DNA of 64,000 nt from an uncultured virus (IMG/VR IMGVR_UViG_3300030333_004509). Taxonomy: Duplodnaviria > Heunggongvirae > Uroviricota > Caudoviricetes. The stretch spans positions 1-64,000 of the IMG/VR virus record IMGVR_UViG_3300030333_004509; one strand, written 5' to 3'. Shown piece by piece: positions 26,001-62,876 of this stretch; position 1 is the first letter of the stretch, and the number at the start of each line of letters is the position of its first letter. Made by a program: the position numbers and the translations under genes. The notes under the pieces are model-generated. The model saw nothing but the letters and a program-made list of their open reading frames with translations, ran no database searches and was not told the origin of the DNA.

Positions 26001-26087
26001 ATTGAGGCCGTCAATGCTAAAGTCAGGGAGCTCAACCGGGTTACTGGAATGGAGCAAGAACAGCTTAGGCTGATAGGTGGTATCTAG
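23022..26087 (+). CDS. Large putative internal virion protein
   Basis: 1021 aa; TAATG coupling; poly-Lys and P/E-rich N-terminus; coiled coils. Confidence 0.7.
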   Translation: MPEETEIPIPGEDVGTSTGKKKKKKKKNTTVGSTETDSGETTKSQRVVIPEDKPEDTGEVESESQAGPPIEDQPEEDTGPTTSAQPPSTYKPKPVDPEPVVKPEVKPSKPIVPAEVKAARKARAAHDTDEARLYGYLGPDVPQTEARLTTDVFRSEEAQNALTPLISGETIDEQRADYYKRLMADVPQPIQDAFGHKGMGLYRMWDDIAYRAAVESGKIDEKTIGVVPHDSMLPGARHSGFQPLNLFDIVLVPQIMADEQTTDSFIGRIDDVAAKMLDPKDLDESGISKTAQEYVEGLSLPELHALDTKILPTMIYNLAGQHYGYDPAVIEAYQAMTGGELPQDVNGRPISAYKTQSSGGGAFGVQELVPREGSPYADDPEQYKSFLLVHDRLRLLVDLETQEREAKSEELRMGADEAEVERRETEVIGARGGVSIAREVLENRGESPPEIGTIEYERTTSNGRISDYQRLLATPYLSHDRYVPVDSMPGTYKGYDQGVVDTYREEARVVGTFASGGKRPTPAPGRVMPATPQKRVSLPGSERIVSVQPLRQAMPRPESGLSLPAMGGPPPPSPFEPGELWSVKKGFIAKVTPTHTASEGVAYLTRSDDNDPRITYATVDPTIKPHPLDVDRKIRQLRDAGEDENGNTVDDAYINRFMARMNTSPDEIDTYRRLIQAEEEHLARLFSREGGEGGTTRNVRIENLKKEIKDLEAERATLTAEREGLEESPEGYSRGTAINRRLKAIAAEIPKAQADVDRLSETRRMRTVSPASGETISMDIERYPQKADESPLEYMRRLAILRVDLKVRIARNKNVIAALREKQTKLESTKAAPTDEAWIEFIGSLEEVMNERAVQARESEKYLTAARAGSAAVGAGRNRPDDPEGTAIEKFGYIQPPRPYAEYIWAESPDIEEIGYPVYWLDDGNEHTHGDARHPIAIRQGLVFNRRLTLTDKEDKYGPITGYWVTIEEDKLINQLLKVRDEQDAEAQKLQEQIEAVNAKVRELNRVTGMEQEQLRLIGGI

Positions 26088-38000: not shown

Positions 38001-38659
38001 GCGGGTTCGGTCACATGGCGAACATGACAGCCTTCTACCTTCTTGCGGGTGAATGGGTGCTCGGATCTAACGGCTTGCACTTGATCGACGACAAGGACGA
38101 AGGCTCGGCTATGCTTGGGTATGCGATGAACAACGCACTCGAGGAAGTCGTAAATGTACGGAATGCGCCGATTGCGGGTGAAGTGCTTGACTGGATCTCA
38201 GACGAGAAGATGCAGTACCCAAGACGGATCTCGGATACTACCGCGAACTTGATTGAATCAAGCGGGATTCTGGGGATGATCCCTGTGTTGCGGACACAAG
38301 AGGTGGCCGAGTGGATGGAGGAAGATGAGCGGCGTGCGGCATTCAAGGAAGGGTGGGTCGCTGCAGAAGAAGCCGAGATGGCTGGAGCTCGAGTTCGCCC
38401 AAGACGTAATTACATTCCGCCAGGTATGATCACGTTCCTCTTTGACAACAGTCCTCTCGGAGAGTTTGACCGCATGATGAAAGCTTGGGAGATGACTCCG
38501 CAAGAAGAGACTATGGAGTTTCAAGGTCAGCTCTACCGCTGGGCACGTACTTTGGCGGGGGCGGATATCCAAGAGATTCGGGGTAGCCGCACTGCATCGC
38601 TTGAAGAACCTTATAGCATGCGCAAGTTTAGAGGCATGCCTGAAGAACCAATGGATTAG
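26087..38659 (+). CDS. Giant polyvalent/ejection protein (JAB-like, ART-like and zincin HExxH motifs)
   Basis: 4190-aa uninterrupted ORF; HNHP...FSRDD; WFHAT...FGPGLYLAEN; IHELGH...EEHFAEAF. Confidence 0.8.
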   Translation: MSDYEDTPEGLPEPEVPKIDDTYGLREEDIKEYMDIAGVSRQKAIRVLAPNLGAQVAQREAKLDIRKQQDEVVDRLDITGLGNKLKGNQGAIEMGLTPRYTDHNDVLDKHAQSVGMSADEYRQELGALNVGYEALVEDIVTRGRPVEHALKMADKRGSLARVDSRTREIEQTGHYLQTKARVLARTDPEAAKELGIEIDPIFVDEESSFGLSGTSEYERRQVVSQPGEYGFQAAQMQAEALVTSNPELGQWVKELSASHVGGDTYITRRATQKLDKWKAANPGYDQKEAEDLEKVFIDQAMEELGIFKTIGWWQMPIFMSSRYRYGDAKDDSFITAMAPQIEIVGLNNKGHVVTRTAGAGQYGIKTVDFLQAGVVGGLATIGTEEDWWSGSKRGIANQRDFLEWSQDLAGHDASTIKKAGYGIAALPFLLLTPDALFGTAGAAKIAGRGGKLVRKGAVTRKHMTSIEDILSGAKGGDIDALTMADIERIQALDKSLMLNDEIAEQMDLLDGQIGAFLGRSNPYTGFTFVKGEPNKGIKLADDLPGNLGGQGINLHPTRRKARAKAQAQELAEREARAKAKGKVEKKGIEIETPKVEIPDLYDYAGHLKRIRTARKAVDDLDVGDFAPRLDADITSESVRITNIISDIADAEVAANFRLKMKGSLDDALKRPGVPARGANTEDAARFWYSDMVEEVRKLPGMEKATDELAAIDRALAAGEITEAEAKAARKPFQAQAAARRQVYNQLESIAKKAQKIADDSPLKRTKQALDRAEEAVKANLESRIAAWYVLHDQLQGGLLFKGRRRVNPLAEGSKLANKIKDFIDLTPDAQNFAGMLQKYFNMSQAEADANARLFDAAAKAWAYQNQRTPHDWWKRTIAGVKSKEDFIERFKNGPPDVTNPPGKGGKVTPDGDGPTPDPTGMVPVVAPHWQGNMNTVAGRASTALPDGYRLEGFGGEALEFPSGIGPKGDRGLMNKLAIRIRNAGVDIDPYRTSKKDLFESINKGLLELSETANGRVVIDELVEEGFFRNIGQRNWKVIGPDGSVVKEVTNSDALDVVAQAVEKLLDDGVMVRHAEDMGGDIRVGPVVYGMSHAAVRAALKDHPREVGVHFIGDQQIFRFGDEFDDKVKYGHDNTAALAKRPDHVAYHNHPDPEGYRNWFSRDDLMFFPFLALREQRVIMADGSVLQLEMLGDAGWNGWNNLSHIGRLFNGDYTTVAEMERGDAVFHAVLRDYSERIDNDVFEAAEAAHRADVNAGKFGPRPEAGPELVEYNKRQNRALFESLSRRYEKLLKEDYGIDARVTVYEGRIPDRRLAPDVEAVSDPRPVAREGELRVKDPIEPLAVKRADDTPQVPVEEEFTSLVKKLGPDGLNALSFKSDDFMRNVITRNQSGTVTSEVVEFIPVDKIGLGRLANLGDWRVTDNAKIEQAKNLLRGFINDYRQKLVDIGAVKKVDNKDRIQYRIDREEDVWDTTWMNYDANVEAAILSDAWLDGPVSILAHTAHDLDRQFAMLSRDIFSPAEVAAIKQELASDPRILDAIELINESTAYKPGRQPRFYREKKEAPTKLSADPQNNEVATFLGTLRASPEPFGEAADNFKQKLLVLKDHASQLGDLLVPYQDKFLGLIADDDNLIQLALVADARRNSGFFKQTSQPGNISDHCRKIATLKWRLRTGDFKGGSIDPAIQEIASDLLPTELDLQRMLADEQAFLRNELDILRGQLQKERHQLVRDLRVLDTIGIINAKNASFDSTIAEAKARLQSPVNSAFEYMELMNMGGPPKTHMYGLRVRDPEKLQEYITSVETKLRDPSLEAEKTAHLLGRRRELKDHLFIQSRWRKMLEEASKRPGSYLEEAVPTLTKTEEFAPPNFPGLDKHFNPRDAERIRNEVAWLQDPENVGMDDGSPVVAGIGLDSGSSVTVMLLDEGYIEIQPTDMLSQLERMERSDAYEYVGVPHLKGFLSPKAETSAPTITEFNMFTADVKHEEISARARDLQGEIARAAHAVRNLASEIRSGITYAGDGKQVYRDYKYGLGRFASLMTDSIRESKHSFVALDNAKNVPISSPALGLGETVLENLARQGVPADTSVHTLVGMLNNRTSLMHNLSPTTREIIERRAFDQDMIRHASAAESHELMVSQVNATPWFHATQSDFNIYDYSLKYSGKHYGNAFGPGLYLAENPELSVVKYMAGAGLGTRTIPDARNQLAAVKVNARNIIDIRGYPEDLANQFDELGMPMEALVLRGGYQPLTQKLLDEATGRTRTRTGATFYRGYMTPTRMSNEGLFNASSEIHLISRAQAKLQSIAEELGLKAADVTDDAQYATLTSDESLMSRLDTDRRTFGAHPSDEAISDIEALAKAGDSEPFPVPGSEPIPGFFYTPAAESWLWREMLMDNAAHIAYDPRFYSRGGAEIIADLSHRDMAYQLDRLRYETSQKFRNRSVSRAPDAWNMLRKMYSGRGKQLRAAESGSDTMRAVQEARQKDLQEWVHQSYETDAGTQRFPELPEYPGDDSVGFTGDPPDTPSEELQLLENFAREVLDAAKEGKLDKYATGERRIFGDIHSEYQPWDVDDHVFGWNILDSIGSIEYNLPTASGQTELPNLRRLARLHKRGRLPPGGLNKFKLNMIQTLEHNGINTLDDLRVYYNMDRTRRADTVFRLKGPDGKQLDKPSSEYLTALVLGGGIAARAPKQADISGLIERCHKFLDARAPTKIDLHTMLMNNNVDGALHFGSMDSNVLILFDPMASKLDNAVEVLVEKGRVFDDDILYHTRRVDDLIEEERAAVEFLDDGRAVIYALGEPDPVSVIHELGHILRRQMSKDDLDGVTAYLNKKLGLEGEDALTHKGNKFVGSKENVRRAEEHFAEAFEAYVARGTAATDIKPAFSRLKVFLGQVVARMTRSNQTIDIDPDVEVFFDKLLKETPDAEPILRRVSGRVQEHMNISGTGSPFPEVSAFEFFSEESRRVGATHIGTKLDADGNVTETIELTRESLEAEYDKLQNLVDSKKLDPEEAVLRIVDEDGNAVPVMHDMYDGGKSTFDLNDVGSLQVRLERERAEALTATMPMAHTKSAAHAVKEFSPIEALQSRLATPGAKAGIGRAALFTFFGGDPNKALRLLPPMQRMEIRAGSRSVEQAIGECVTLVAEANQYEKGGLGKVVKYLTGEILNFEFGGRSVMSSGWNSASSVADAIRVSATEALETDHKALMGALTVFIERTKPHKADERTFTEMFDQFARNDPDAAQLLDKAMHRMFKGKGSFLSDVGNVIQIGKNPTPEEYKLLEALLYFSGSTKRNGKLIDDAGLTWEQRTTKLFDEVNKIYGPKGDIVTKKMALVMAGHGTAGRVFRSWTDMGVAVEEDVVAAFKKMMMGEAISPEIRPRVMDVVRRYGYNPFFLESSMLDAGYHLPLQARKKLSEALARGLEKADPRVEKWEKLGNIPASFQKFLGSEQNMKSVFGAWFRYMKLRMTRGAVMIRPRYFLMNTIDHFTQMGMVTGIRPALISTVRLSAQNALAVPGVNKALAILEKASTLPAGGKYQIKVEQARKILQSGGDAVANALGKMMGASKYNIKLNDILEGKPGTFKVTDKNGLIKVYSYQDIRAIMVQEGIFATFDTTALGKVVRESVENQWRGSTFKDAKTKARYLAEDLLFNSIDDIAEAWSERERAGAVITLIEMGYDPKTASRMTIDALYDYAGTMTSIDRHWLMSLMFPFWAYQKNANRQIFNMMFSPRGAYRMGVIRRFHEGSTYLASELYWSAIVDPYGVYYDGLDDNQKKTYDAVRTRIEFGYGPIDELSDEHRERMERAFNVQDLKDLSAEQINIIENGYGSPSQQSPKVRTAIMRLFAGHGSGAVRVTDGRILDMSDFMSIYSGYDSSGADYYNVTGEELRTPLSGYDPDAWVKMSVKEKERLILNAKLEESKTAFRMATLPRPQEHELPSYYRDRAFISIPPIFDKNTQQYHKLLQDTGHESPWTGVFLPENTIQGGFGHMANMTAFYLLAGEWVLGSNGLHLIDDKDEGSAMLGYAMNNALEEVVNVRNAPIAGEVLDWISDEKMQYPRRISDTTANLIESSGILGMIPVLRTQEVAEWMEEDERRAAFKEGWVAAEEAEMAGARVRPRRNYIPPGMITFLFDNSPLGEFDRMMKAWEMTPQEETMEFQGQLYRWARTLAGADIQEIRGSRTASLEEPYSMRKFRGMPEEPMD

Positions 38660-45096: not shown

Positions 45097-45125
45097 TTGA
45101 CGACCTGGAACTACGTAACTACACT
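45097..45125 (+). promoter_or_regulatory. Sigma70-like promoter for the replication operon
   Basis: TTGACG-17bp-TACACT. Confidence 0.7.
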
Positions 45126-45142
45126 TGTGCCGGAGGATGAAC

Positions 45143-47056
45143 ATGTGGGACCAACCGCACTTTAATTATCATATCGATCTCGAGGGAATCCCTCAGACCA
45201 ACTTTGAGATACTCGATAATCTCGAAGCGATGGTGCCTGGTTGCCTGGTTTACGCCATCGGTAACCAACATCTTAAGTATCGAGTAGGGAAGCGTGTAGT
45301 ACCTGACCACGTTGAACTGACAGGCTACCGAGTCATGGTTCCTGTCCACGGAGCTTGGCTGGTTGAAGGCTACCTGCAACAACATTTAGTGGCGTATGAG
45401 CCTGAGCCTGTAGGTGTTAACGGGCTCGTCCCTTGGAGCTCCGACTCTTACAGACTCGAGACCTTAGAAGATATTGGTCGAGAAGTCTTGTACCGTCGAA
45501 CTTTGGAGGGTGAAGTCAAGGAGTCGGTGCGTGAGCTTATCACGCCTTACCAGCTTAGAAACGTAGGCTGGGCTACGAGTAGGCCCTGGGTCATGAATGT
45601 CTGGCCTTGTGGATCAGGCAAGACCCTGGGTTCTTTGCTCAGCGCACTGACTGTTGACGGTCCCGTGCTTGTCGTGTGTCCCGCAAAGGCTCGCCATGTC
45701 TGGTGGAGCCAGGTACAGGAGTACACCAACATCAAGCCTTATCGTGTTGTACCTCGATCTAATCGACGGAAGAAATACCAAGAGCTACCCCAGTACCTGC
45801 ACGAATGTCGGACGCATAGACGTAGACCATTCATCATTGTGGGTGCTGAGTCGTTAGCCGATTACCTTGAAGAGATGCGCTTGATTAAGCCCACCGTGCT
45901 GGTGCTGGATGAACTGCACATACACGGTAGCCGTAAACGCTGGACTGCAATCCAAGAAGCCGATGGTTCTGTGTCATTCGAGCGGCGCAAGACCAAGATG
46001 AGCGACAGGGATAACCGAGCCGTTGCCGTCATGGATGCCAGTCGTATCGAGAGTCTCGAGCTCTGCATCGGACTAACTGCTACCCCCTTGGATGATGGTA
46101 GGCCGCGGAGACTCTGGTCTCAGTTGGACCTACTCTGCCCCGGAGGATTTGCGTATAGCTACAGCAAGTTCGCCAACCGTTACTGTGACGCGCGACCTGG
46201 ACAGTTCGGTGGTCTTGATGACACAGGCGCCAGTAATATCGAGGAACTCAGAGCTCGCTGCTCATTCTTTACGCACGAAGTCCCCTACTCTGAATCTCAT
46301 TCAGCGCTGCCCTCAACCCGAGTACAAGTGGTTTACCTAAGTCAGCAGGACCTGGTGCGAGCTGACCGATTCAGTGATGGTCAGACTTTTAACCAAGCCC
46401 TTAAGAGTATGAACCGGGAGGCACGCAGCAACCCGCTCATGCGAGAGCGTGTGGTGGAGTCTCGCTTGGCCGAGGCTTGTAGTCGGAAGCGCCGCTACGT
46501 TGTGGATGAGATCAAGGAGGGACTCAAAGGTGGGGGCAAGGTAGTTGTCTTCACAGCTCGTAGACGAGAAGCTGAGTTGTGGGCTCACCAGGTACGCAAA
46601 GCCATCAAGCGCGGCGACGAAGCTATGCAGCACGTTCCAATCTGGATGGGTCACGGTGGCGTGAGCGAGCAAGAGCGTGATGAAATGGTCGACGCTTTCC
46701 GTGAATCTGACGGTCCCTGCTGCCTGATTGGTACAGGGCAAGCGTTCGGTACAGCCGTCGACGGTATGCAGACAGCTGACTTGGCGATCTTTGCGATGTT
46801 ACCGTGGAAACCTGGAGACTTCGTGCAGTGGAAGGGAAGGTTTGATAGACTGGGCGGACGTGCCACGTTGCTCAAGGTTGTTGTTGCGACCGGCACCTAC
46901 GATGAACGAGTCGTTGAGATCCTTGTCGAGAAGTTCGGGCCTATCGAGCAGTTTCTAAAAGCTGACGAGCTCCGAGGTCTGGACGAGAAGCTGCTTGGTC
47001 TTGAAGATCAAGAGAGCATTGTTGACAGCATTATAGGAAAACTGGAGATTGGATGA
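45143..47056 (+). CDS. SNF2-like superfamily 2 helicase
   Basis: GSGKT, VVCP, LDELH, LTATP, Q..GR..R motifs; GGAGG RBS. Confidence 0.9.
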   Translation: MWDQPHFNYHIDLEGIPQTNFEILDNLEAMVPGCLVYAIGNQHLKYRVGKRVVPDHVELTGYRVMVPVHGAWLVEGYLQQHLVAYEPEPVGVNGLVPWSSDSYRLETLEDIGREVLYRRTLEGEVKESVRELITPYQLRNVGWATSRPWVMNVWPCGSGKTLGSLLSALTVDGPVLVVCPAKARHVWWSQVQEYTNIKPYRVVPRSNRRKKYQELPQYLHECRTHRRRPFIIVGAESLADYLEEMRLIKPTVLVLDELHIHGSRKRWTAIQEADGSVSFERRKTKMSDRDNRAVAVMDASRIESLELCIGLTATPLDDGRPRRLWSQLDLLCPGGFAYSYSKFANRYCDARPGQFGGLDDTGASNIEELRARCSFFTHEVPYSESHSALPSTRVQVVYLSQQDLVRADRFSDGQTFNQALKSMNREARSNPLMRERVVESRLAEACSRKRRYVVDEIKEGLKGGGKVVVFTARRREAELWAHQVRKAIKRGDEAMQHVPIWMGHGGVSEQERDEMVDAFRESDGPCCLIGTGQAFGTAVDGMQTADLAIFAMLPWKPGDFVQWKGRFDRLGGRATLLKVVVATGTYDERVVEILVEKFGPIEQFLKADELRGLDEKLLGLEDQESIVDSIIGKLEIG

Positions 47057-48003
47057 GCATGTTGATTGACGCCGGTAAGAGCGAGCGAGGTTGGTCGAGG
47101 ATCGGCCAGTTCATGAAGTGCCCTCAACTGTTTGCTTACACCAACAGACTGAATCTCAGCATGATCCCCGCGAGTGCCCTGACTCGAGGATCGATCGGCC
47201 ACATCCTACAAGCACACCAACACGCAATCTGGGGAGCCAAGCAGGGCGGGTGCTTTGTGGGAGACGACTGGGTCACAGATCCAAAAGACGTCCTACCTCC
47301 CGAAGAAGCAGCGCTTGCTTACTGCGACAAGGAAGGTGAAGGACACGAACACCTGGACCGAATGGTCGAGACCTTCCGCCGGTACATGGCTCGCTATCCT
47401 GAACCACCCGGCGCTATCGTAGCCGTGGAGTATCCGATTACAGGAATGCTTGGTCACCTTGACGGACAGTGGGGCCTATGGGCGGTCACAAGTGATACCA
47501 AGGATCAGATCCAGCCTACGCCACTGAACTGCCCCGGTCATCCCGACCACGGCAAACCACTGACTCTTACCAGACGTTTAGATCTTGTGATTAAGGATCG
47601 TAGTGGGCGCGTCTATGTGTGGGATCATAAGCACCAAGCTCGAGTTGAGCCTGGCAGATCGGTAGACGCTTACGCTATTGATGGGGGCTTCGCAGCCTTC
47701 CGCATCCTGGGTCAGCAGATCTGGGGACCAAAGACAGGGGTGGCACTGAATCTTATTCAGACCCAAGATCCTTGGAGAGTAGCCCGACCCATCGTCCCCG
47801 TCACACCCCACAGAGACCGACACTTCGCCCAGATGTTGTGGCGCGCAGAGCATGAAATAGCTCGTCTGGATCTCGGTTGCGAGGACTTGTGGAGCTGGCC
47901 CAAGAGTCAGCATGAGACCACTTGCTATGGTCGCTACGGCGCATGTTCCGCTATCAAACTATGTTTTTACGGAGAATCAGAAATATCCACATTTAGTGGT
48001 TGA
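47053..48003 (+). CDS. PD-(D/E)XK exonuclease, Cas4/AddB-like with Fe-S cysteines
   Basis: KCP, GS..H, VE, RLDL...DHK, C-terminal C..(6)C..(5)C. Confidence 0.8.
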   Translation: MSMLIDAGKSERGWSRIGQFMKCPQLFAYTNRLNLSMIPASALTRGSIGHILQAHQHAIWGAKQGGCFVGDDWVTDPKDVLPPEEAALAYCDKEGEGHEHLDRMVETFRRYMARYPEPPGAIVAVEYPITGMLGHLDGQWGLWAVTSDTKDQIQPTPLNCPGHPDHGKPLTLTRRLDLVIKDRSGRVYVWDHKHQARVEPGRSVDAYAIDGGFAAFRILGQQIWGPKTGVALNLIQTQDPWRVARPIVPVTPHRDRHFAQMLWRAEHEIARLDLGCEDLWSWPKSQHETTCYGRYGACSAIKLCFYGESEISTFSG

Positions 48004-48028
48004 CCCGATATGTGGTAGCGATTACTCT
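48000..48028 (+). promoter_or_regulatory. Sigma70-like promoter
   Basis: TTGACC-17bp-TACTCT. Confidence 0.5.
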
Positions 48029-48066
48029 CTCTGTACCCTAACCCAACCTGTCAACATGGAGTCACG

Positions 48067-49053
48067 ATGAGTGACGGTAGTACCGCGCATCCATCCGTAA
48101 TGATTTGCTCATACGGTAAACCAAAAAAGCGTAAGACATCTGATGCGATTGCAGCTTTCCCCAGCGCCTTATTTGTAGGTGTGCCCAGTGCGATTACTTT
48201 GGTCGCGCAGAACGAGCTCGGGTTTACACCTGCGGTTCATCCCAGCCCACCTCAGACCCTACCTGAACTGGTTGCTCTACTCGAGCACCTGGGTAGCACC
48301 AACATGGCTGAAGCTTACGGGGCACTCGTCATCGACGATGCCAGCCACATCTGCAAGCGCAGCATGCTTGTCTGGAATGAGGAAGCGCCTTCTGGTCGTA
48401 GCGGTAAGAAGGATCGCTTCTACGCTTACCAGCAGCTGAATCGTTACCTGCTGGAGATGTCCAGCCTTGCTCGTCATCTTGGTGTTCACCTTGTCACAAC
48501 GTGGCATGAGCGCATGCCGGGCAGCAACGCTGACGGACACTTCAGCCCAGGCGGACCCGATGTTCCCTCGCGGAACCAGACGGAGACGATCCCTTCCTGG
48601 TGCGACATCAACGTCCGCGCCATGGTTGACCCCGGATACCCCGACCCTTGGTTCCCCTCTGTCTACTACTGCGATCCTACTGATAGCAACTGGATTACTG
48701 GTGACCGCACAGGTGTGTGTACCCAGAAGACCCCGGGCAACCTAAGAGAGATCTTGCGAGCCAGCGAGTCAGGCTACCAGCTTAGCCGTCTGCCCGGTCT
48801 CGAGTGGCAAGATGAGCTCGCTGACCTGATCGCAACTCAAGTCGCTACTGGCGCAGATGTACGCGCTACGGTACAGAACATCGCGGGCCAGTATCAAGCT
48901 AACCCTTTGCATTTACGCTGGGCATGCCAAGACGGTATTGCTCGCGGAATCTTGCGGATGAATCGGCAGAAAGGTCTGTTTGATTTTTCCTCTACCCAGG
49001 TCGAACAGAAGAAAGAGGGGGCAGCTCTCCCTCCACCTCCCCCGACCGCTTAA
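48067..49053 (+). CDS. Sak4-like (AAA_24) recombination ATPase
   Basis: YGKPKKRKTS (variant Walker A), LVIDD Walker B, T.H, WCD; nuclease-ATPase-SSB synteny. Confidence 0.7.
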   Translation: MSDGSTAHPSVMICSYGKPKKRKTSDAIAAFPSALFVGVPSAITLVAQNELGFTPAVHPSPPQTLPELVALLEHLGSTNMAEAYGALVIDDASHICKRSMLVWNEEAPSGRSGKKDRFYAYQQLNRYLLEMSSLARHLGVHLVTTWHERMPGSNADGHFSPGGPDVPSRNQTETIPSWCDINVRAMVDPGYPDPWFPSVYYCDPTDSNWITGDRTGVCTQKTPGNLREILRASESGYQLSRLPGLEWQDELADLIATQVATGADVRATVQNIAGQYQANPLHLRWACQDGIARGILRMNRQKGLFDFSSTQVEQKKEGAALPPPPPTA

Positions 49054-49088
49054 CCGGACTACAAGTCCACAACAGGAGATAGAACCTC

Positions 49089-49733
49089 ATGACTACTATC
49101 ATGATCCCCGGTTCAGATTTTGAGGGCATCGGAGCTCTCAATGCAGCGCCACCCGACGCAGGCGTCTACGAAGTGAGCATCACTAAGCTCGAGCGTCATC
49201 CCAGCGACAAGCCTGGTGTTCGTCGTGTCCACGTCTTGTTCCCTAACGGGTTCACGATGTTTACCTTTGTGCACTTCGCACATGAGCAGGATTCCAGCGG
49301 CAACTTCGTCCGCATCCCTAACCTGCCCGACAACAAGTTCATTGGCCGCATGAAAGCGATCAAGACGATCCTCTACTCGCTGGGTTACGCCGACGAGCAG
49401 ATCCAGAGTGGTGACATCCACGATGGTTGGTTCATTACAGCCCAGTCTAACAACAAGGGCTTCGTGGACTTTACTCCCGGTCAGCGTGGAGTGCAGGGCA
49501 GCTACAGCAACGTCAACAGCTGGCTGACCAAAGCTCAATACGAGAGCCGGAAGAGCCAGCCTGCTGCAGCTCAGACCAAGGCAAGCCCCGCGGCTGTCAA
49601 GGTGGGCGCGGCTCCTCTGCCCGCAGCCAAGCAGACCATGTCTGCTCCGGCCCCGACCAATGGTGCTGGCGCACCGTCTGTCGGCGCGGCTCTGCCCCCG
49701 CCACCTTCAGTGGCGCAGGGAATCGTGAGCTGA
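49089..49733 (+). CDS. Putative single-stranded DNA-binding protein (DUF669-like OB fold)
   Basis: 'P.AG.YEV.I' start, 'Y.NV..W' end, A/P-rich tail; follows the Sak4-like gene. Confidence 0.6.
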   Translation: MTTIMIPGSDFEGIGALNAAPPDAGVYEVSITKLERHPSDKPGVRRVHVLFPNGFTMFTFVHFAHEQDSSGNFVRIPNLPDNKFIGRMKAIKTILYSLGYADEQIQSGDIHDGWFITAQSNNKGFVDFTPGQRGVQGSYSNVNSWLTKAQYESRKSQPAAAQTKASPAAVKVGAAPLPAAKQTMSAPAPTNGAGAPSVGAALPPPPSVAQGIVS

Positions 49734-50054: not shown

Positions 50055-52787
50055 TTGTCACAGTCTCTATCACAGTGCAAAACTCAGCAAGGTGACGCCC
50101 AATGTGATAGCTGCCCGCTCAGGAACGGGGGGCCACTTTCGGAGGGAGAGTGGAAACCGGTGGGACCTGAGCTACACCAAAGAGCGACCGTAATTGCAAT
50201 TGCAGAGTCGCCCGGTCCCGAGGAGGTCGAGAGAGGCCGACCCCTTGTGGGCCGCTCTGGTGGTGAGTGGAACGATGCCCTGCGTGCTGCGGGCAAGACT
50301 CGCCCCGAAGTGGACCTAACCCACGTAATCCTCTGCCGCCCACCAGGACAGTCTTCTGGTGCCTGGGGTCGGATGGAGAAGAAGTTAGACAAGCTAAACA
50401 AGAAGCGAGAGAAAGACGGGCTGGACCCGCTGCCTCACCCGGCAGAGTGCTGTCGCCCTCGACTACTCGCTGAAGTATCAAAGTACGATCACATCATCAC
50501 GCTGGGTAAGACCGCCACTCGAGCTCTGACCGGCTCATCAGGATCCATCCAGGCTATGCGCGGTGGACCACTGTGGGTCGACGAAGACTGGCAGATCACG
50601 ACAGACGATGACGCCAAGCTACGCCGAGTCATGCCGACTCTGCACCCCTCGTTTGTACTGCGCTCACCCAGCTGGCGTAACGTCTTGCACTCTGACATCG
50701 GTAAGGCTTTCCGTTGGTTCGGCGGGGCACTACGCTGGACTGAACCCGACATCCTATGGCGACCTTCACCCGAAGAGCTTGAGGAGTGGCTTAGTCAACC
50801 AGCTCCTTTCTGGGCTTATGACGTGGAGACTGACGGTATCAACGCGCTCGAGTGCGGGTTGCGCACCTTGGCTATCGCCATCCCTGACATGGACGACCAA
50901 GGTCGAGTGGCTGACCCCACCATGGGTCGACAGGTCCACACGAACGCCAGGTCTGTAGGGTTGACATTCATGACTGTGAGTGGGGTCGCATGGTTCGACA
51001 CCGAGGAAGGCGCAGAGATCAAGGAGATCCTTCGACGGGCTTTCACTGATGGGCGTCCCTGGGTCGGACACAATGCCGGGTTCTTCGATCGACTGGTGAT
51101 CGAGAACCACTTTGGTGTGACGCCATACCCCCTCATCGACACGCTCTTCCCCGCACGTTTCCGTGCACCTGACCTGCCCAAAGGTCTCAAGACTGTGGGT
51201 TCGGTACTCACCGACGTAGAGCGCTGGGAGAGTACAGAGAAGGGAACGAAGATCGCGACAGGCAGTGAAGACGACGATGAGCTGTTGCGTTACAACATCA
51301 TTGACGCTGTAGTGAACGCACGTATCGTTCCTCCGCTTATCGTAGCTACTGAGAAAGCAGGCGCATTCCGCCCATGTAACCCAGCGTTTCGTCCATCAGG
51401 TTGGCCCAGCCATAGACCCTGGGATCTCAACGAAGTGGATCACGCCACGCAGGAGATGTGTGTTGAGCTCCACAGGAACGGTATCTGGGTCGACCAGGCT
51501 AAGCGGCTAAGTCTCGAGGCAGAGTATGAGATCAGCGTTCAGCAACGACATAAACGGCTTAATGGTTTTATCGATGGAGTCCCCATCAATCCCGGTAGTG
51601 CTGATCAAATACGCGATCTACTGTATCGTCGTTGGGGCCTGGGCATACCACCTCAGATGGAAGCGAGAGACTTCTACACCGAGACTGGTGCCCCTGGAAC
51701 AGGTGACGCTGTTCTCCGAGGACACTTAGCCAGCGGAAACTTGACGGCACAACAGGAAGAGTTCATACGTGAGCTGAGGTTGTACCGTAGAGAAAAGAAC
51801 AAGATCTTAGGTACGGTGTTGATCCCGATGCGTCGACGAGACATCGACCTCAAGAAAGGCTTGGTCTGGGAAGACGGGCGTGTCCGCAGTAACTGGAACG
51901 CTCACGTCACCAGCGTAGGTAGGCTGTCCAGTAGTGGACCCAACCTCCAGAACATCGGTAACCGAAAGGGGCAGGGCAGGCTGAAGAGTATCTTCGCAGC
52001 ACCACCTGGACGTGCTTACATCGGGGCTGACCTAGACCAGGCTCACCTGCGGATCACAGCCAACTACTGGCAGATACCACGTCTACTCGAGTGCTTCGCG
52101 GAGAAGAAAGACCCGCACAACCTGCTGGCCTATGACGTATTCGGCTCGAAGTTTAAGAACGCTGATGGGTGGGGACCGGAAGGATTCAGCCTCAAGCGTA
52201 AGCCTACAAGCGGCTCAGCTAAAGCGATGCGTGATGTGATGAAGACGTTCCGCTATGCCTCGATCTACTGGGCAGATCCCATGACCGTCTGGCAGGTGCT
52301 CACCTCAACGGAGACAAACGACGGCAAGATGCCGTACCTCAAGTTCGAGACTCGAGAGGTACGCCACTTCCATCGCAAGTGGTTGGAGGCTGAGCCTGAG
52401 TGGATGGATGCGTGGAACCGCATGCTCACGATCTACCGATACCAGAACTATATGGAGGAGCCTGTGCTGGGTAGGCGCAGCGGCGGGCTGAGTGACGGCA
52501 AGAAGAACGAGGTTGTTAACTTCCCGATCCTCGCCGCGGAGAGCTCGCTCATGCGACTGGCTGAGCAGGCTGTCATCGAAGCATTCCCGTTCCAGTTTGA
52601 CGGGCCCGGCACTGGCATGATTCACCAGTGTCACGACAGTATCTGTGTCGAGGTCCCTGATGCAGGAGAAGAGCAGCTCGAGGAATGGCGCTGCATCGTA
52701 GAAGAATGCATGACAATCAAGGTGCCTGGCTGGGAGGTCGACCTGACTTCTGAGGCGGACATCGGACGAACACTAAAGGATGTGTAA
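50055..52787 (+). CDS. polA: Family A DNA polymerase with N-terminal family-4 uracil-DNA glycosylase-like domain and 3'-5' exonuclease
   Basis: UDG: C..C, ESPG..E, CRPP, LG..A, HPS; Exo: DVET, HNA.FD, Y...D; Pol: GRLSS..PNLQN, D..Q..LR, R...K...Y...Y, HD. Confidence 0.92.
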   Translation: MSQSLSQCKTQQGDAQCDSCPLRNGGPLSEGEWKPVGPELHQRATVIAIAESPGPEEVERGRPLVGRSGGEWNDALRAAGKTRPEVDLTHVILCRPPGQSSGAWGRMEKKLDKLNKKREKDGLDPLPHPAECCRPRLLAEVSKYDHIITLGKTATRALTGSSGSIQAMRGGPLWVDEDWQITTDDDAKLRRVMPTLHPSFVLRSPSWRNVLHSDIGKAFRWFGGALRWTEPDILWRPSPEELEEWLSQPAPFWAYDVETDGINALECGLRTLAIAIPDMDDQGRVADPTMGRQVHTNARSVGLTFMTVSGVAWFDTEEGAEIKEILRRAFTDGRPWVGHNAGFFDRLVIENHFGVTPYPLIDTLFPARFRAPDLPKGLKTVGSVLTDVERWESTEKGTKIATGSEDDDELLRYNIIDAVVNARIVPPLIVATEKAGAFRPCNPAFRPSGWPSHRPWDLNEVDHATQEMCVELHRNGIWVDQAKRLSLEAEYEISVQQRHKRLNGFIDGVPINPGSADQIRDLLYRRWGLGIPPQMEARDFYTETGAPGTGDAVLRGHLASGNLTAQQEEFIRELRLYRREKNKILGTVLIPMRRRDIDLKKGLVWEDGRVRSNWNAHVTSVGRLSSSGPNLQNIGNRKGQGRLKSIFAAPPGRAYIGADLDQAHLRITANYWQIPRLLECFAEKKDPHNLLAYDVFGSKFKNADGWGPEGFSLKRKPTSGSAKAMRDVMKTFRYASIYWADPMTVWQVLTSTETNDGKMPYLKFETREVRHFHRKWLEAEPEWMDAWNRMLTIYRYQNYMEEPVLGRRSGGLSDGKKNEVVNFPILAAESSLMRLAEQAVIEAFPFQFDGPGTGMIHQCHDSICVEVPDAGEEQLEEWRCIVEECMTIKVPGWEVDLTSEADIGRTLKDV

Positions 52788-53239
52788 TGAGTACTGCAAG
52801 ATGGTTCCTGGCGCATGACAAGTCGGTTGAGGAAGATCTCATCAACATGTGGGCCAAAGAACTAAAAGAACTGTTGGCTTCCCCCGGCTTTGAAGTCGAA
52901 GTAACTTCAGGTCGAGATGACTACATCGCTCGATCTGCAGCCTTGGGTGGCTGGGCTCGTTGGTGCGGTGATGTCCCGCACGGTCGACGCTACGATGGTG
53001 ATCCCATGTTCCATGGTGTAGTCGTACCCGTCAGTCCTGGTGACATGAAGCCGCTGGTCGGCAAGGCTACCTGTCAGATCGTCGCTGGCTTTATCAGCGA
53101 GATGAAGCACGCCTACACCTGGTGCCCCGCATCTGGTGAGTTTCAACGCATCGAAGATGTTCAAACGACTGACATGGACGACTGGCGTGGCTGGGCTCAA
53201 CTAATACTTGAGGTTGACGCCTCGTCACAATGTGAATAG
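52787..53239 (+). CDS. Hypothetical protein
   Basis: 150 aa; TAATG coupling to the polymerase. Confidence 0.75.
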   Translation: MSTARWFLAHDKSVEEDLINMWAKELKELLASPGFEVEVTSGRDDYIARSAALGGWARWCGDVPHGRRYDGDPMFHGVVVPVSPGDMKPLVGKATCQIVAGFISEMKHAYTWCPASGEFQRIEDVQTTDMDDWRGWAQLILEVDASSQCE

Positions 53240-53242
53240 TCT
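53214..53242 (+). promoter_or_regulatory. Sigma70-like promoter
   Basis: TTGACG-17bp-TAGTCT. Confidence 0.55.
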
Positions 53243-53271
53243 ACCAGTATCCTAAACTCAAGGAGGGATGA

Positions 53272-55026
53272 ATGTCTAAGACACCTTCGCCTGATCCCTA
53301 TGTCAGGCTCATAGAGAGCAACGTAAAGAGTCCCACGGGGGACTTCTGGAAGCTAGAGCTCAGTCCTCGAACGCTGCTCGTTGGCTCAAACACATCACAT
53401 AAGAGCGCGGTTCTGCAGTCAGTAGAGCTGGCATTGACGGGTGCTGCCGATGATATTGTCGGTCGATCTGCTGTCAAGGATGCGGGCTTGCTCATGACTC
53501 TGTCCCCAAGCGACACGCTTGAGACTACAGCTTGTTTCTCGGATGGGTCAGAAGCTTTCTTCCGCGTCAAGAGTGACGGCAAGAAAGTCAGCAAGCCAGA
53601 GCACGCTCACGATCTCGATACCAAGCAGAGCCTACTGCTGCGTCAGGTTCGCTCAGTGCTTGCCTCAGGCACAGATACCTCTCGCCGCGCGTTTCTCCGG
53701 TGGGTAGGTAGAAACCTACAGGAAGAAGACATCCTGGCTTTCGTACCGACAAACCTGCACTCTAAGTATCGCGACTGGGCTGAGCATATCCGCGGAGATG
53801 ACCAGGTAGACACGCTTCTTAAGATCTACGATTACGCAGCCAAGAAGCAGAGAGACTTGGGTCGACAGGCACAGGCGGCTCGCGCTGTGGTGCAGAGTCT
53901 CAGTGAAGATGTTGAGCTGGGTGACAGTGCTCAAGTCGGACATCTTAAAGAGAAGATCAGCAATCACATCTCGTTGATGGCTCACGCCTACACGGGCAGT
54001 CACCTGCCGGAAGGATGGAAGCACGTCGATGTATCTAAGCAGGCAGTGAACTTTGCGATTGAACAGGACCTCGAGTCGTGTCCTCTGTGCGGCAGCAACG
54101 TAGGCAACGAGCACTTTCACCGAGTCCTGGATTACTACCTCAAGGCTTGCGAAGACGTGGATCGAACTGATCAAGCAGCTTACTTGTTTGAGAAGAATAC
54201 GGAGCTTCAAGAGATGCTCAACCAGCTGGCTGATCTGTCGAATAAGCAGGGGCAGCGTAGCTCAATGATGGACACGCAGGCCAAGGTGATCGAGCTTACG
54301 CAAGAAGCTGAGAACTACAAGCTCTACAAGTCACAGCTGTCTGACACTGTACTTCAGCTACTTCGCTCTTCTTTTGTCCAAGACTTCTGTCTGCAAGTTA
54401 GCGAGTACCTACCAAAGAACTGGCGCTTCTCAGTCAGGCTCAACGAGGGTGACCGCCAGGTGTTCCGGGTAGGTCTGTATGACTCCGAGTCTGGGCGTGT
54501 GCGCTGCGCTTTGTCCGGTGCTGAGTGGGCTACAGTCACATCAGCGCTGGCTATGTGCGTGGCCGATGGACTGCCGGAGACTACACCTCGAGTGATTATT
54601 CCTGAGGATCGAGCTTGGGATAAGAAGACCTTGGCGGCTGTTATGCGGAGCTTTAACTCCTTCGATGGTCAGGTCCTGATGGCGAGCACCATCCGACCGC
54701 AGGGTCGCACTCCCAAGGGCTGGACCATTATCGACATGGACCAGTGGCTGGAGGAAGAGATCGAAGGCTCAGCTGAGGCTGCGGATGAGCAAGCAGAGCT
54801 TAGCTCATGTCCCGTAGACACTGAACCTGAGCGACCAGTCTCGAGCAAGGGAGCGAAGATCCTTACCGGTCTTGGCTACGACAAGGAGCAGATCACGCAC
54901 ATGAACGTGTCGACTGCTGCGGCTATCATCAAGCAAGGTTTGTTGGCTGAGTACACTCACATCAGCTCAGACGGCGGTTATGAGTTCACTCAGAGCAGCA
55001 AGCTGATTAAGTTGCCAGAACAATGA
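53272..55026 (+). CDS. Rad50/SbcC-like ABC ATPase with short coiled coil
   Basis: LLVGSNTSHKS Walker A-like, central CPLCG hook, LSGAE signature. Confidence 0.75.
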   Translation: MSKTPSPDPYVRLIESNVKSPTGDFWKLELSPRTLLVGSNTSHKSAVLQSVELALTGAADDIVGRSAVKDAGLLMTLSPSDTLETTACFSDGSEAFFRVKSDGKKVSKPEHAHDLDTKQSLLLRQVRSVLASGTDTSRRAFLRWVGRNLQEEDILAFVPTNLHSKYRDWAEHIRGDDQVDTLLKIYDYAAKKQRDLGRQAQAARAVVQSLSEDVELGDSAQVGHLKEKISNHISLMAHAYTGSHLPEGWKHVDVSKQAVNFAIEQDLESCPLCGSNVGNEHFHRVLDYYLKACEDVDRTDQAAYLFEKNTELQEMLNQLADLSNKQGQRSSMMDTQAKVIELTQEAENYKLYKSQLSDTVLQLLRSSFVQDFCLQVSEYLPKNWRFSVRLNEGDRQVFRVGLYDSESGRVRCALSGAEWATVTSALAMCVADGLPETTPRVIIPEDRAWDKKTLAAVMRSFNSFDGQVLMASTIRPQGRTPKGWTIIDMDQWLEEEIEGSAEAADEQAELSSCPVDTEPERPVSSKGAKILTGLGYDKEQITHMNVSTAAAIIKQGLLAEYTHISSDGGYEFTQSSKLIKLPEQ

Positions 55027-55256
55027 AATGCCCTGTCTGCAATCAGAAGACTGTCGTTTGCACCACTCGTACAAGCGACAGTCCGCGAGGTTACAAGGCG
55101 GCTCGTCTTGTAAAAGAGTCGGTGTCTTGGTACACCAGTGATTGGGTTGCTCGCATACGATCCTGCTCCAACTGCGGTTGGAGTGGGCCAACAGTCGAGC
55201 TTCCACTCGAGGATTTGAAGGGTGGTTGGAAACATGCCTACCCGCACAAACCTTGA
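55023..55256 (+). CDS. NrdR-N-like zinc-ribbon protein
   Basis: MKCP.C...T.V..TR...R.R.C..CG; no ATP cone. Confidence 0.7.
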   Translation: MKCPVCNQKTVVCTTRTSDSPRGYKAARLVKESVSWYTSDWVARIRSCSNCGWSGPTVELPLEDLKGGWKHAYPHKP

Positions 55257-55282
55257 CAGCATGGTCCGCGACTCGATAGATT
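55253..55282 (+). promoter_or_regulatory. Sigma70-like promoter
   Basis: TTGACA-18bp-TAGATT. Confidence 0.5.
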
Positions 55283-55443
55283 GATCGAACCCACCAGACT
55301 GCGCGGTCTGGTTCCTGTAACAAGGATTGGGTTTAGGGTTGCGTCATCCGTTTGAGCTCGGGCGGGTGGCGCATTTCCTTGTCCCTCAGCGCACTTCTTT
55401 GATCCCCCCCTAACGGTACACTTCATGATCCCCGGAGTCCCTC

Positions 55444-57534
55444 ATGCCAGATACGGCGCAAGCCGATGGAGCTCAAGCTGAAAACCCTGAACCCATCTCA
55501 GCAATCGAAGCCCTTGAGAATCTACTAACTGCCGCGAGAGAACAGAACGCTGAAGCTCGCGACTCTGCCTGGTCCCAGATCCAGGACCCTGATGTAATGG
55601 ATGAGCTAGCTCGAGAGTGGCGCACATCCAGCGATCGGATCACCGCACTGATCTCAGCGCTTGAAACAACAAGAGGTCAGGCTCGTCGAGCCCGGACACT
55701 GCGTAACGCAATCAGGCGACTGGCTGAAGAGCGTGCTCGCCAGATGGCTGAGCAGTGGCTCAATGAACTACAAGAGGACATGACCAGGCTACCTACCCTG
55801 GCCGAGGCGCTGAGCCTGGGCGGGCCGCCCGCGGGCGTAGTGGATCCCCTGGTCCTGGCGAACCTGCATGTACCTCGAGGATTCCAGATCGAAGTCTCGG
55901 GAGTCTACCGATTGACTCCTGGGATGGACGGTGACATGCAGCGCACAAAGATCTGTTCCGCTCCGATGTTTATCTCAGGCCGGACCATCGATGTCCTTAC
56001 CGGAGAAGCGAAACGTCAGGTTGTGTGGCGGGGGCCCAGTGGTTGGTGCTGCCGTGTCGTAGACAGGAGAACGATCCTTGACGGCTCACGCATCATGTCC
56101 CTTGCGGATCTCGAGGCCCCGGTAAACTCAATCACAAGCGGACAGGTTATCACTTACCTGGCAGAGTTCGAGTCCGAGAACAGTCACCGCTTCCCGGCAA
56201 TCCGCTCAGCTTCGCGCATGGGCTGGCTCCCGGACGGCTCCTTTATCCTGCCGGACGTTCACTACACGCCGGACGATGAGCCCACCAGGTTCGCCTTGAC
56301 CGCACCTCCCGGACTCGAGCAGCTATCCAAGGGTTGGGGCTCGGCAGGCACCTGGAACGAGTGGTGCAACGGTGTGCGCCAGATCTGTGAGTTCCCGCAC
56401 ATGATGATCTCCATCTATGCCGCGGCAGCTGCCCCGATCCTTACTGTCCTGCGCCTTCCCGGATTCGTCGTAGACTTCAGCGGCGAGACCAGCGGAGGTA
56501 AAACCACAGCTCTTCGTATGGCTGCGTCTGTGTGGGGTCGGCCCGCAGACAGTTATCCTACGGCGATGTATAGCTGGGACGCCACCAAGGTCTGGATCGA
56601 GCGCACCACCGGCTACCTCCACAACCTGCCCTTGATTCTCGATGAGACCAAGCGCGTGCGTCATCCCCGGATGATTCGAGATGTGATCTATGACTTCTGC
56701 CAGGGGCAGGGTCGAGGCCGCGGATCGGTCGACGGCACCAGGTCCATGGCATCCTGGCGCTCTGTCCTGATCAGCTCCGGCGAAGGTGCAGCCACCAGCT
56801 TCAGCCAAGATGCCGGAACTCGAGCTCGAGTCCTTAGCCTCAAAGGTAAGCCGTTGGGTAACAACGCAGAGGAAGGCGGCAAGATCAGCGAGAACATACA
56901 GGTGATTCTTTCGGATAACTACGGACACCTGGGCCGGAGGCTCGCTCATTACCTGGTCGCTAACACCGCAAACCATGACCAGATTCGGCAGGTCTTCAAG
57001 GAAGCTCGGGACCGGTACTCGAACATTGCACAGACTGCGGTAGCTCGTAGACACGCAGCTCACCTGGCTGTTCTCGAAGTAACCGCACAGATCGTTCATC
57101 AGCTTGACGTGCCTCGTCCGCTCGAGGATCCCTTCGCTCGACTGATCGAGGCCGCGGCGGACGCAGGCATCGACGCCGACCGACCGTTCGCTGCGATGCA
57201 GGACATCGTGAGCTGGTGCGCAGCCAATCGCACACGGTTCTGGGGCCGACATGAGAGCACCTCCTTTGGCCCACGCACACCCGGAAACGGTTGGGCTGGG
57301 GCCTGGTCAGACGAGGAGGGCTGGGAGTTCATCGCGATAACCACACTAACGCTTCGTCAGATTCTGGATGAGCTGGGCCACCATCCTGACGAGGTGATCA
57401 CCCGGTGGGACGAGAGAGGCTGGCTCTTCAGGGGACGAGGGCGAAACCGAACCAAGGTCGTGCGCGTGGATGGCTCCCCGATCCGCTGCTACTGCATCGA
57501 CCGGAGAGCTGCTGACCTGGCGCTGGATGACTGA
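55444..57534 (+). CDS. DUF927 / Cch-SaPI-Rep-type replicative helicase
   Basis: R.GW, G.W..W, GETSGGKTT, LPLILDE, G.GR.R, SSGE, NYGH.G motifs. Confidence 0.85.
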   Translation: MPDTAQADGAQAENPEPISAIEALENLLTAAREQNAEARDSAWSQIQDPDVMDELAREWRTSSDRITALISALETTRGQARRARTLRNAIRRLAEERARQMAEQWLNELQEDMTRLPTLAEALSLGGPPAGVVDPLVLANLHVPRGFQIEVSGVYRLTPGMDGDMQRTKICSAPMFISGRTIDVLTGEAKRQVVWRGPSGWCCRVVDRRTILDGSRIMSLADLEAPVNSITSGQVITYLAEFESENSHRFPAIRSASRMGWLPDGSFILPDVHYTPDDEPTRFALTAPPGLEQLSKGWGSAGTWNEWCNGVRQICEFPHMMISIYAAAAAPILTVLRLPGFVVDFSGETSGGKTTALRMAASVWGRPADSYPTAMYSWDATKVWIERTTGYLHNLPLILDETKRVRHPRMIRDVIYDFCQGQGRGRGSVDGTRSMASWRSVLISSGEGAATSFSQDAGTRARVLSLKGKPLGNNAEEGGKISENIQVILSDNYGHLGRRLAHYLVANTANHDQIRQVFKEARDRYSNIAQTAVARRHAAHLAVLEVTAQIVHQLDVPRPLEDPFARLIEAAADAGIDADRPFAAMQDIVSWCAANRTRFWGRHESTSFGPRTPGNGWAGAWSDEEGWEFIAITTLTLRQILDELGHHPDEVITRWDERGWLFRGRGRNRTKVVRVDGSPIRCYCIDRRAADLALDD

Positions 57535-62866: not shown

Positions 62867-62876
62867 NNNNNNNNNN
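62867..62876. other. Assembly gap (10 N)
   Basis: Run of N. Confidence 1.

Follow-up and report, generated by a model that had tools for sequence, protein, structure and literature searches.

A predicted variant of the family A DNA polymerase active site, with histidine at the steric-gate position, conserved in an uncultured subfamily of UDG-PolA fusions

The window analysed here is a 64,000-nucleotide stretch of DNA from an uncultured marine phage (bases 1-64000 of the 70,080-bp record IMGVR_UViG_3300030333_004509; CheckV completeness 100%), and the gene under study encodes a family A DNA polymerase on its plus strand, at 50055-52787 (910 aa, TTG start codon, stop codon counted in), with an N-terminal uracil-DNA glycosylase (UDG) domain. 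Judged from its sequence, this polymerase (P0001) is a conserved active-site variant of family A replicases, within a large uncultured UDG-PolA subfamily. Four linked changes, and not the replacement of E710 by His alone, appear to define this His-type active site. They lie at the positions of T666, E710, Q849, and A852 in Klenow numbering, which is used for all comparisons below.

In ordinary family A enzymes, E710 packs against C2' and keeps ribonucleotides (rNTPs) out, and the Thr of the TGR motif (T666) is conserved. Both E710 and Q849 are textbook examples of near-invariant Pol I-type residues, and much polymerase engineering has been built around them. The family A active site would have a second stable architecture, in which E710, Q849, and two neighbours are replaced in a large natural clade of sole proofreading phage replicases.

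Four linked positions in the active site

The original prediction, made from the letters of the window, was that the PolA active site had been rewired, with the steric-gate Glu replaced by His and with further changes in the O-helix. All of the motifs that it quoted (DLDQAHLR, RDVMKTFRYASIYW, NFPILAAESS, and HDS) were found in the ORF (open reading frame) at 50055-52787, on the plus strand. Together with the TGR motif, they are located as follows:

51909..51923, plus strand: TSVGR, the 'TGR' motif, with Thr changed to Val621 (51915-51917) and Arg623 (= R668) kept
52029..52052, plus strand: motif A, DLDQAHLR, with the catalytic D659 (= D705) and with His664 at the E710 position
52230..52271, plus strand: motif B, or O-helix, RDVMKTFRYASIYW, with R726, K730, Y734 (= F762, a T7-like Tyr), and Y738
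52518..52547, plus strand: motif 6, NFPILAAESS, with N822 (= N845) kept, Leu826 (52530-52532) in place of Q849, and Glu829 (52539-52541) at the A852 position
52632..52640, plus strand: motif C, HDS, with H860, the catalytic D861 (= D882), and S862 in place of E883

A phmmer comparison with the PDB placed 'adldqahlritanyw' over the Klenow sequence 'adysqielrimahls' with top posterior probability, in agreement with the proposed E710H change (His664, codon CAC, 52044-52046); motif A holds no Glu elsewhere that could serve as an alternative gate. The equivalences that had been drawn by eye, namely N761R (R733), F762Y (Y734), G763A, G767W (W739), Q849L (L826), and D854S (S831), were upheld, as was the retention of D705 (D659), D882 (D861), R668 (R623), R754 (R726), K758 (K730), Y766 (Y738), and the Exo I-III motifs. 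In addition, N822 corresponds to N845, and H860-D861-S862 to H881-D882-E883. Among the features expected of a family A enzyme, P0001 has the catalytic Asp of motifs A and C and the Arg, Lys, and Tyr of the O-helix, but lacks the Glu of the steric gate (His664 instead), the Thr of the TGR motif (V621), and the Gln of motif 6 (L826).

To collect relatives, we used a word-seeded search of metagenome protein sets (606 matches, 120 of them listed; Tara, JGI, and ENA sources) and a full HMMER search against 1.84 billion cluster representatives (520 matches at E <= 1e-30; 14,172 at E <= 0.001, with 150 listed); 269 sequences were anchored to the query for column counts. The count of His at position 710, which had been suggested as a check on the original prediction, showed that the gate column holds His in 190 of the 269 family members, Glu in 76, and Asp in 1; His664 is therefore not a chance occurrence.

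Among the approximately 900 scorable columns, only four separated His-type from Glu-type representatives at a level of at least 0.99: columns 621, 664, 826, and 829. Column 664 (E710) was occupied by His in the His-type versus Glu or Asp in the Glu-type, column 826 (Q849) by Leu or Ile versus Gln (one Ser), column 829 (A852) by Glu versus Ala, Gly, or Ser (few others), and column 621 (T666) by Val, Pro, or Ile (2 Asn) versus Thr, Ser, or Gly (single Ala, Ile, and Met). Thus, of the substitutions noted originally, E710H and Q849L are clade-specific, whereas F762Y and the motif C reading HDS/HDA also occur in Glu-type sisters, and N761R and G767W vary within the His-type. Conversely, T666V (V621) and A852E (E829), which were absent from the first list, track His exactly or nearly so. 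The idea of a rewired active site was borne out more strongly than it had been put, with four positions changing together across a large clade.

The same pattern was found in each set of sequences. All of the 120 matches listed from the word-seeded search read (V/P)HLE at the four sites. In the HMMER list of 150, the 68 complete His-type sequences were all x-H-(L/I)-E and the 74 complete Glu/Asp-type sequences were all x-(E/D)-(Q or one S)-nonE, the 8 others being truncated at one or more of the sites. Among IMG/VR contigs, 49 loci were found with P0001 and 22 with a 12-sequence Glu-type alignment; all of those readable at the four sites were (V/P)HLE in the former set (42 out of 42, with His at the gate in 44 loci) and (T/S)(E/D)Q(A/G/H) in the latter (20 out of 20). 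No mixed four-site state was observed in the readable sequences of the two protein lists and the two viral contig sets. Residues D705, D882, R668, R754, K758, Y766, and N845, as well as Exo I-III, were equally conserved in His-type and Glu-type representatives.

These observations bring close to refutation the explanation that P0001 is an inactive polymerase-like scaffold, or that its His is an assembly or alignment artefact: the His-bearing members come from many independent assemblies, in addition to the 44 viral loci, the reading frames are unbroken, every catalytic residue is conserved, and the genome yielded no other polymerase.

Marine viromes (Tara, JGI, and ENA sources) commonly contain the His-type clade, of which no member has been cultured. 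A tblastn search of 50,697 GenBank phage records retrieved no close cultured relative, with a best identity of 26.6% for P0001 and 26.8% for the Glu-type sister P0160; the polymerases of Rctr197k, N4, and a Manatee Spring phage have Glu at the gate, and the polymerase domain of Mel-JY34 gave no alignment.

Some individual sequences exhibited further particularities. Six His-type representatives (P0169, P0204, P0215, P0228, P0229, and P0173) have Tyr in place of the motif C His (H881), reading 'QNYDS', which was observed in no Glu-type representative. P0187 and loci L070-L072 combine an Asp gate (GADANQIDLRV) with otherwise canonical partners (TDQA); a single base change separates Asp from His. 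Moreover, many relatives are 1200-2034 aa long (P0105-P0107, P0153, P0176, P0223, P0252, and others), some with an HNH domain (PF13392) and some reading 'FVHN(S/C)' at the motif B position. The long relatives look like carriers of inteins or homing-endonuclease insertions within the O-helix region; the polymerase gene of the window has no such insertion.

Domain organization and genomic setting

The gene and its three domains were delimited as follows:

50055..52787, plus strand: whole gene, a UDG / 3'-5' exonuclease / family A DNA polymerase fusion (ORF and Pfam)
50094..50738, plus strand: UDG domain (Pfam UDG, residues 43-207, E 8.9e-14)
50772..51404, plus strand: 3'-5' exonuclease domain, approximately aa 240-450 (weak Pfam DNA_pol_A_exo1 match)
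51420..52784, plus strand: polymerase domain, approximately aa 456-910 (Pfam DNA_pol_A, residues 488-907; Foldseek)

A purine-rich stretch lies directly 5' of the TTG codon. The database copy of the polymerase (P0002) is 875 aa long and 100% identical, with a start placed 35 residues further in, and would lose two of the four iron-sulfur (Fe-S) cysteines, C17 and C20. Relatives align from residue 1-15 onward, which favours the TTG codon at 50055 as the start.

The Pfam DNA_pol_A score was 111.3 bits against a cut-off of 34.3 (residues 488-907), and that of DNA_pol_A_exo1 was weak, with 20.9 bits against a cut-off of 23.6 (residues 252-378). The exonuclease residues are nearly invariant in the family, namely D256/E258 of Exo I (50820-50828), N340/D345 of Exo II, and Y413/D417 of Exo III. 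An AlphaFold2 model, built with a 91-sequence alignment, had a mean predicted local distance difference test score (pLDDT) of 94.4 and a predicted template modelling score (pTM) of 0.91. The best Foldseek matches of this model were Klenow, Bst, and Taq, with template modelling (TM) scores of 0.78-0.83, normalised to target length, and E-values down to 1e-28. P0001 is thus predicted to be a family A polymerase with a confident Klenow-like fold. The original description of an active enzyme is consistent with this model, with the conservation of the catalytic, O-helix, and exonuclease residues, and with the position of P0001 as the sole PolA of its genome.

Family-4 UDGs are characterized by four Fe-S cysteines, a GE(A/G)PG-type motif, and an HPS motif. 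The UDG domain of P0001 aligns with TM0511 of T. maritima and with other family-4 UDGs, and the GPG, CRPP, and HPS motifs match up. C17, C20, C94, and C133 are nearly invariant in the family alignment. HPS is kept, and the other motif reads AESPG where GEGPG is expected (first Gly changed to Ala); the NCBIfam model UDG_fam4 scored 59.8 bits, below its cut-off of 125.3. The UDG domain is probably active. No UDG column separated His-type from Glu-type sequences, that is, no coupling of the gate type to this domain was detected.

In the complete 70-kb genome, the ORF at 50055-52787 was the only PolA match, and no second polymerase of any family was found among the other ORFs by Pfam, PHROGs, and NCBIfam scans (46-52 ORFs). 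The polymerase is flanked by the following genes:

45125-47056, plus strand: SNF2/DEAD helicase (family scans), the first gene of an upstream replication block at 45125..49733
47053-48003, plus strand: PD-(D/E)XK nuclease (family scans)
48067-49053, plus strand: AAA_24 ATPase (family scans)
inside 45125..49733, plus strand: 214-aa ORF between AAA_24 and the polymerase, without family match (Pfam/PHROGs scans)
52787-53239, plus strand: 150-aa ORF overlapping the polymerase stop codon (ATGA), without match in Pfam, PHROGs, or NCBIfam
inside 52787..57534, plus strand: 584-aa SMC/AAA-like protein, after the 150-aa ORF (family scans)
55444-57534, plus strand: DUF927 primase-helicase (family scans)

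These neighbours are predicted to form a replication module with the polymerase. In the viral loci compared, the helicase, the nuclease, and AAA_24 occurred in the same order beside both His-type and Glu-type polymerases, and the 214-aa ORF was seen in His-type loci only. The 150-aa ORF, which might encode a polymerase accessory protein, lay directly 3' of the polymerase in 37 out of the 49 His-type loci, the remaining 12 having little or no downstream sequence, and was present in 6 out of 22 Glu-type loci. Similarly, the DUF927 primase-helicase was found beside 28 out of the 49 His-type polymerases, the other 21 loci stopping short of that position; none of the 22 Glu-type loci had a DUF927 primase beside the polymerase at E 1e-5. 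Primase use may differ between the two groups of phages. Overall, the presence of a single PolA and the shared order of replication genes point to a replicase.

No gene for nucleotide modification, nucleotide metabolism, or dNTP (deoxynucleotide) synthesis was recognised by Pfam, PHROGs, and NCBIfam among the 46-52 ORFs of the 70 kb, many of which are matchless. In the whole genome, a PP-loop or nucleotide-modifying enzyme was hinted at only faintly, by a GP88-family protein (PF17338, 2.2e-27) encoded beyond the window (L055:2245-3228, minus strand, equal to G000 64244-65227), with a sub-threshold QueC-like stretch at its C-terminus (E 0.01).

Elsewhere, the window encodes podovirus-like structural proteins, namely a portal, a terminase, a major head protein, and proteins of 1410, 1021, and 4190 aa. 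The 1410-aa protein (18790-23022) has a peptidoglycan-binding domain and is followed by the 1021-aa protein (23022-26087) and by the 4190-aa ORF (26087-38659, plus strand), which had no Pfam or PHROG match. These three resemble the giant internal or ejection proteins of podovirus-like virions. At 62867-62876, the record contains 10 N in a row.

Proposed pocket and competing explanations

The role of the four positions can be approached from ternary complexes of KlenTaq. In passages of PMC6125688, a water on O2 of the incoming dNTP is described as also bonded to E615, N750, and Q754; Q754 forms a hydrogen bond with the template base in the terminal pair, and R573 (= R668) reads the primer base. 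E615, N750, and Q754 correspond to E710, N845, and Q849 of Klenow. Because the three share one water, two of the four sites (E710 and Q849) belong to one network with the retained N845. As for the other two, position 852 lies three residues past 849, in the same predicted helix (residues 817-843 of the model), and position 666 is two residues ahead of R668.

We consider it rather probable that P0001 is a working replicative polymerase with an alternative sugar-gate and minor-groove pocket, and with the same net function as its Glu-type sisters. V/P666, H710, L/I849, and E852 would replace the canonical pocket set. The imidazole of His664 would occupy the steric-gate position and still block a 2'-OH. 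The new Glu829, one helical turn past 849, would anchor the His and stand in for the polar groups lost at 710 and 849, and Val621 and Leu826 would pack around the His ring. The expected outcome would be proofread, dNTP-specific replication, coupled to the probably active UDG domain.

A His can act as a gate in another polymerase family. In the PolD study (PMC7708050), H931 is reported as a demonstrated steric gate: H931A loses about 2,300-fold discrimination between dATP and rATP, and rNTP use rose with small side chains at the gate but not with bulky or charged ones. A His gate has been proposed for family C polymerases as well. H664 is expected to still exclude rNTPs, since His is bulky, a His gate has been demonstrated in PolD, and the aromatic 'gate assistant' at position 762 is present as Tyr.

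The original prediction had gone further, to altered sugar or base selectivity, for example rNTP use, priming, or modified nucleotides, none of which found support in the computations. It is very unlikely that the loss of E710 has opened the gate and permits rNTP use, and hence priming or RNA synthesis. E710 does prevent rNTP use in Klenow (in the passages of PMC10201439), and small substitutions at the gate open it, such as E615G of Taq (PMC6125688, in part). Nevertheless, His is not small, and the wild-type His of PolD provides the discrimination cited above (PMC7708050); moreover, the aromatic gate assistant is kept (Y734 = F762), the phage has its own DUF927 primase-helicase, and the exonuclease appears intact. 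The same module order occurs with both polymerase types, the phage encodes its own primase-helicase, and no modification or nucleotide-synthesis gene was recognised; neither unusual DNA nor self-priming is indicated by these features.

Several points nevertheless weigh against an unchanged function. Q849, the residue that hydrogen-bonds in KlenTaq, is replaced by one incapable of hydrogen-bonding (Leu). Substitutions of Q849 strongly damage Klenow, and a conserved function would therefore depend on compensation. Other active-site residues vary more in the His-type than in the Glu-type: non-Arg residues at R712 were found in 16 out of 71 versus 4 out of 77 representatives, non-Gln residues at Q708 in 13 out of 71 versus 1 out of 77, and non-His residues at H881 in 7 out of 65 versus 0 out of 76, respectively, which could reflect altered constraints.

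Trees were built without the trait columns (FastTree, 143 rows; IQ-TREE quick, 67 rows), and both require three changes of gate state; P0169/P0204/P0215 and P0255, each with the whole four-site set, fall within the Glu-type sequences in these trees. The approximately unbiased (AU) test did not reject a single origin of the His-type (log-likelihood difference 19.4, p 0.307), and there were only 3 concordant independent pairs (sign test p 0.25). These two results are insufficient for several independent origins, which we do not claim, and for the same reasons the statistics do not prove that the four sites are physically coupled. Their association may reflect one or few ancestral events.

On such grounds, the four changes might be neutral and historically frozen, at residues without direct contact that were co-inherited from one ancient branch; the unrejected single origin and the small number of independent contrasts, three in all, are in line with this explanation, which we regard as quite unlikely. 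The four positions are highly conserved within each type at 35-45% identity, and no partial reversion of either state was seen across these lineages (0 in the 68 + 74 representatives). Only these 4 of about 900 columns separate the types at the level of 0.99 or above, the three small His-type lineages located among Glu-type sequences in the free tree carry the full set, and E710 and Q849 are neighbours in solved structures.

A further explanation is that the pocket alters acceptance at the minor-groove edge or at the sugar, for example of a minor-groove-substituted base or a 2'-modified or arabino sugar, or provides resistance to nucleotide analogues, so that His-type phages replicate or tolerate something that Glu-type phages do not. 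We consider this unlikely, albeit less so than neutrality or an opened gate. The replaced residues read the minor groove of the incoming base and its C2' position (PMC6125688, in the passages cited), with the Gln that hydrogen-bonds the template base in KlenTaq becoming a hydrophobic Leu, and the greater variability of Q708, R712, and H881 in the His-type fits such a change; in addition, other UDG-PolA groups come from phages with modified thymidine (sections of PMC13697223). Against this, no modification, dNTP-synthesis, or PurZ-like gene was recognised in the 70 kb (weak evidence, as many ORFs are matchless), and the NCBIfam model for DpoZ, the aminoadenine-incorporating PolA (NF038380), scored 41.5 bits against a cut-off of 500. 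Thymidine modifications of known kinds sit in the major groove, at C5, out of contact with the pocket, and the same replication module accompanies both polymerase types. In a more specific and similarly doubtful form of this explanation, the V/H/L/E pocket would be a naturally evolved family A solution with another substrate window, tolerating or preferring nucleotides altered at the 2' position or the minor-groove edge, with His-type phages having an unrecognised DNA chemistry or an escape from host nucleotide-analogue defence. If an altered substrate were true, the His-type enzyme would be a ready scaffold for making modified nucleic acids.

The four-residue swap is directly testable for epistasis. 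His-type polymerases would also give enzyme design naturally occurring points of departure towards other sugar or minor-groove selectivities.

Comparison with known polymerases

The closest comparison is with the Glu/Gln-type sisters (P0160, P0171, and loci L056-L077), which match the His-type in their three-domain organization, at 30-40% identity. They share the Tyr at B3, the Ser or Ala after the motif C Asp, and the upstream helicase-nuclease-AAA_24 order, but differ by the canonical T/S666, E710, Q849, and A/G852, and their contigs are mostly about 40 kb versus 65-73 kb for the His-type. The best Bacillus phage matches of a Glu-type sister had about 22% identity.

Czernecki et al. 2023 (PMC10201439, in the passages cited) sorted PolAs into 19 clusters, of which only one (#14, Ala) departs from the TGR Thr; UDG-PolAs are in the N4-like cluster or unclassified. 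The N4-like UDG-PolAs of cluster #17, such as N4 gp39, likewise combine an N-terminal family-4 UDG, an exonuclease, and a PolA in 800-900 aa, in genomes of about 70 kb. However, gp39 has Glu at the gate (DFASLEDR) and aligned with P0001 by BLASTP over 191 residues only, at 32% identity. Cluster #17 is described there as having Phe at B3 and an inactivated UDG, whereas P0001 has Tyr at B3 and keeps its UDG motifs. The 4190-aa ORF showed no BLASTP similarity to the N4 virion RNA polymerase (vRNAP). Membership in the N4-like phages was rejected on the basis of the Glu gate of gp39, the 191-aa alignment, and the lack of BLASTP similarity between the 4190-aa ORF and the vRNAP.

The SPO1-like/SP15-like enzymes of YerA41 and phiLo (Missoury et al. 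2026, PMC13697223) are also UDG-PolA fusions with conserved UDG catalytic motifs, and coupling of replication to uracil excision has been demonstrated for both. They are larger than the 910-aa P0001 (1306 aa for YerA41; measured masses of 133.7 kDa for phiLo and 155.5 kDa for YerA41), carrying two large inserts together with a domain of about 80 aa at the C-terminus, whereas P0001 ends right after motif C. Their phages have modified thymidine, with PolX and a ligase co-occurring, while no such genes were found in this genome by Pfam, PHROGs, and NCBIfam. Passages of the paper refer to an E710 gate with Phe at the O-helix.

DpoZ was rejected on the NCBIfam score given above and because no adenylosuccinate-synthetase-like (PurZ) match was found in the genome. 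Bacterial DNA polymerase I was likewise rejected, with 104.4 bits against a cut-off of 720 for NCBIfam NF004397 and an N-terminus that is a UDG and not a 5' nuclease. In terms of sequence, P0001 thus appears to fit none of the N4-like, SP15-like, DpoZ, or Pol I groups. T7 DNA polymerase (cluster #5), a phage replicase with proofreading, has Tyr at B3 as well (Y526 versus Y734), but differs by Glu480 at the gate and by having no UDG domain. In divPolA1, as presented in passages of Yutin et al. 2024 (PMC11348598), a second, exonuclease-dead, and thumb-truncated polymerase stands beside a regular replicase, whereas P0001 is full-length, has the proofreading domain, and is the sole replicase; the words 'steric' and 'histidine' are absent from that paper.

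Full-text searches outside subscription journals and supplements retrieved the PolD paper and a fidelity survey but no published family A polymerase with a His gate, and the passages of PMC7708050 name no family A enzyme with a His gate. In the same passages, the imidazole of H931 in PolD, as in the gate proposed for family C, lies next to C2', excludes rNTPs, and helps to position dNTPs. The catalytic folds are unrelated, and this is the best functional analogy for H664, not more. Within family A, the polymerase described here would provide the first steric gate made of His, in convergence with family D and, as proposed, with family C.

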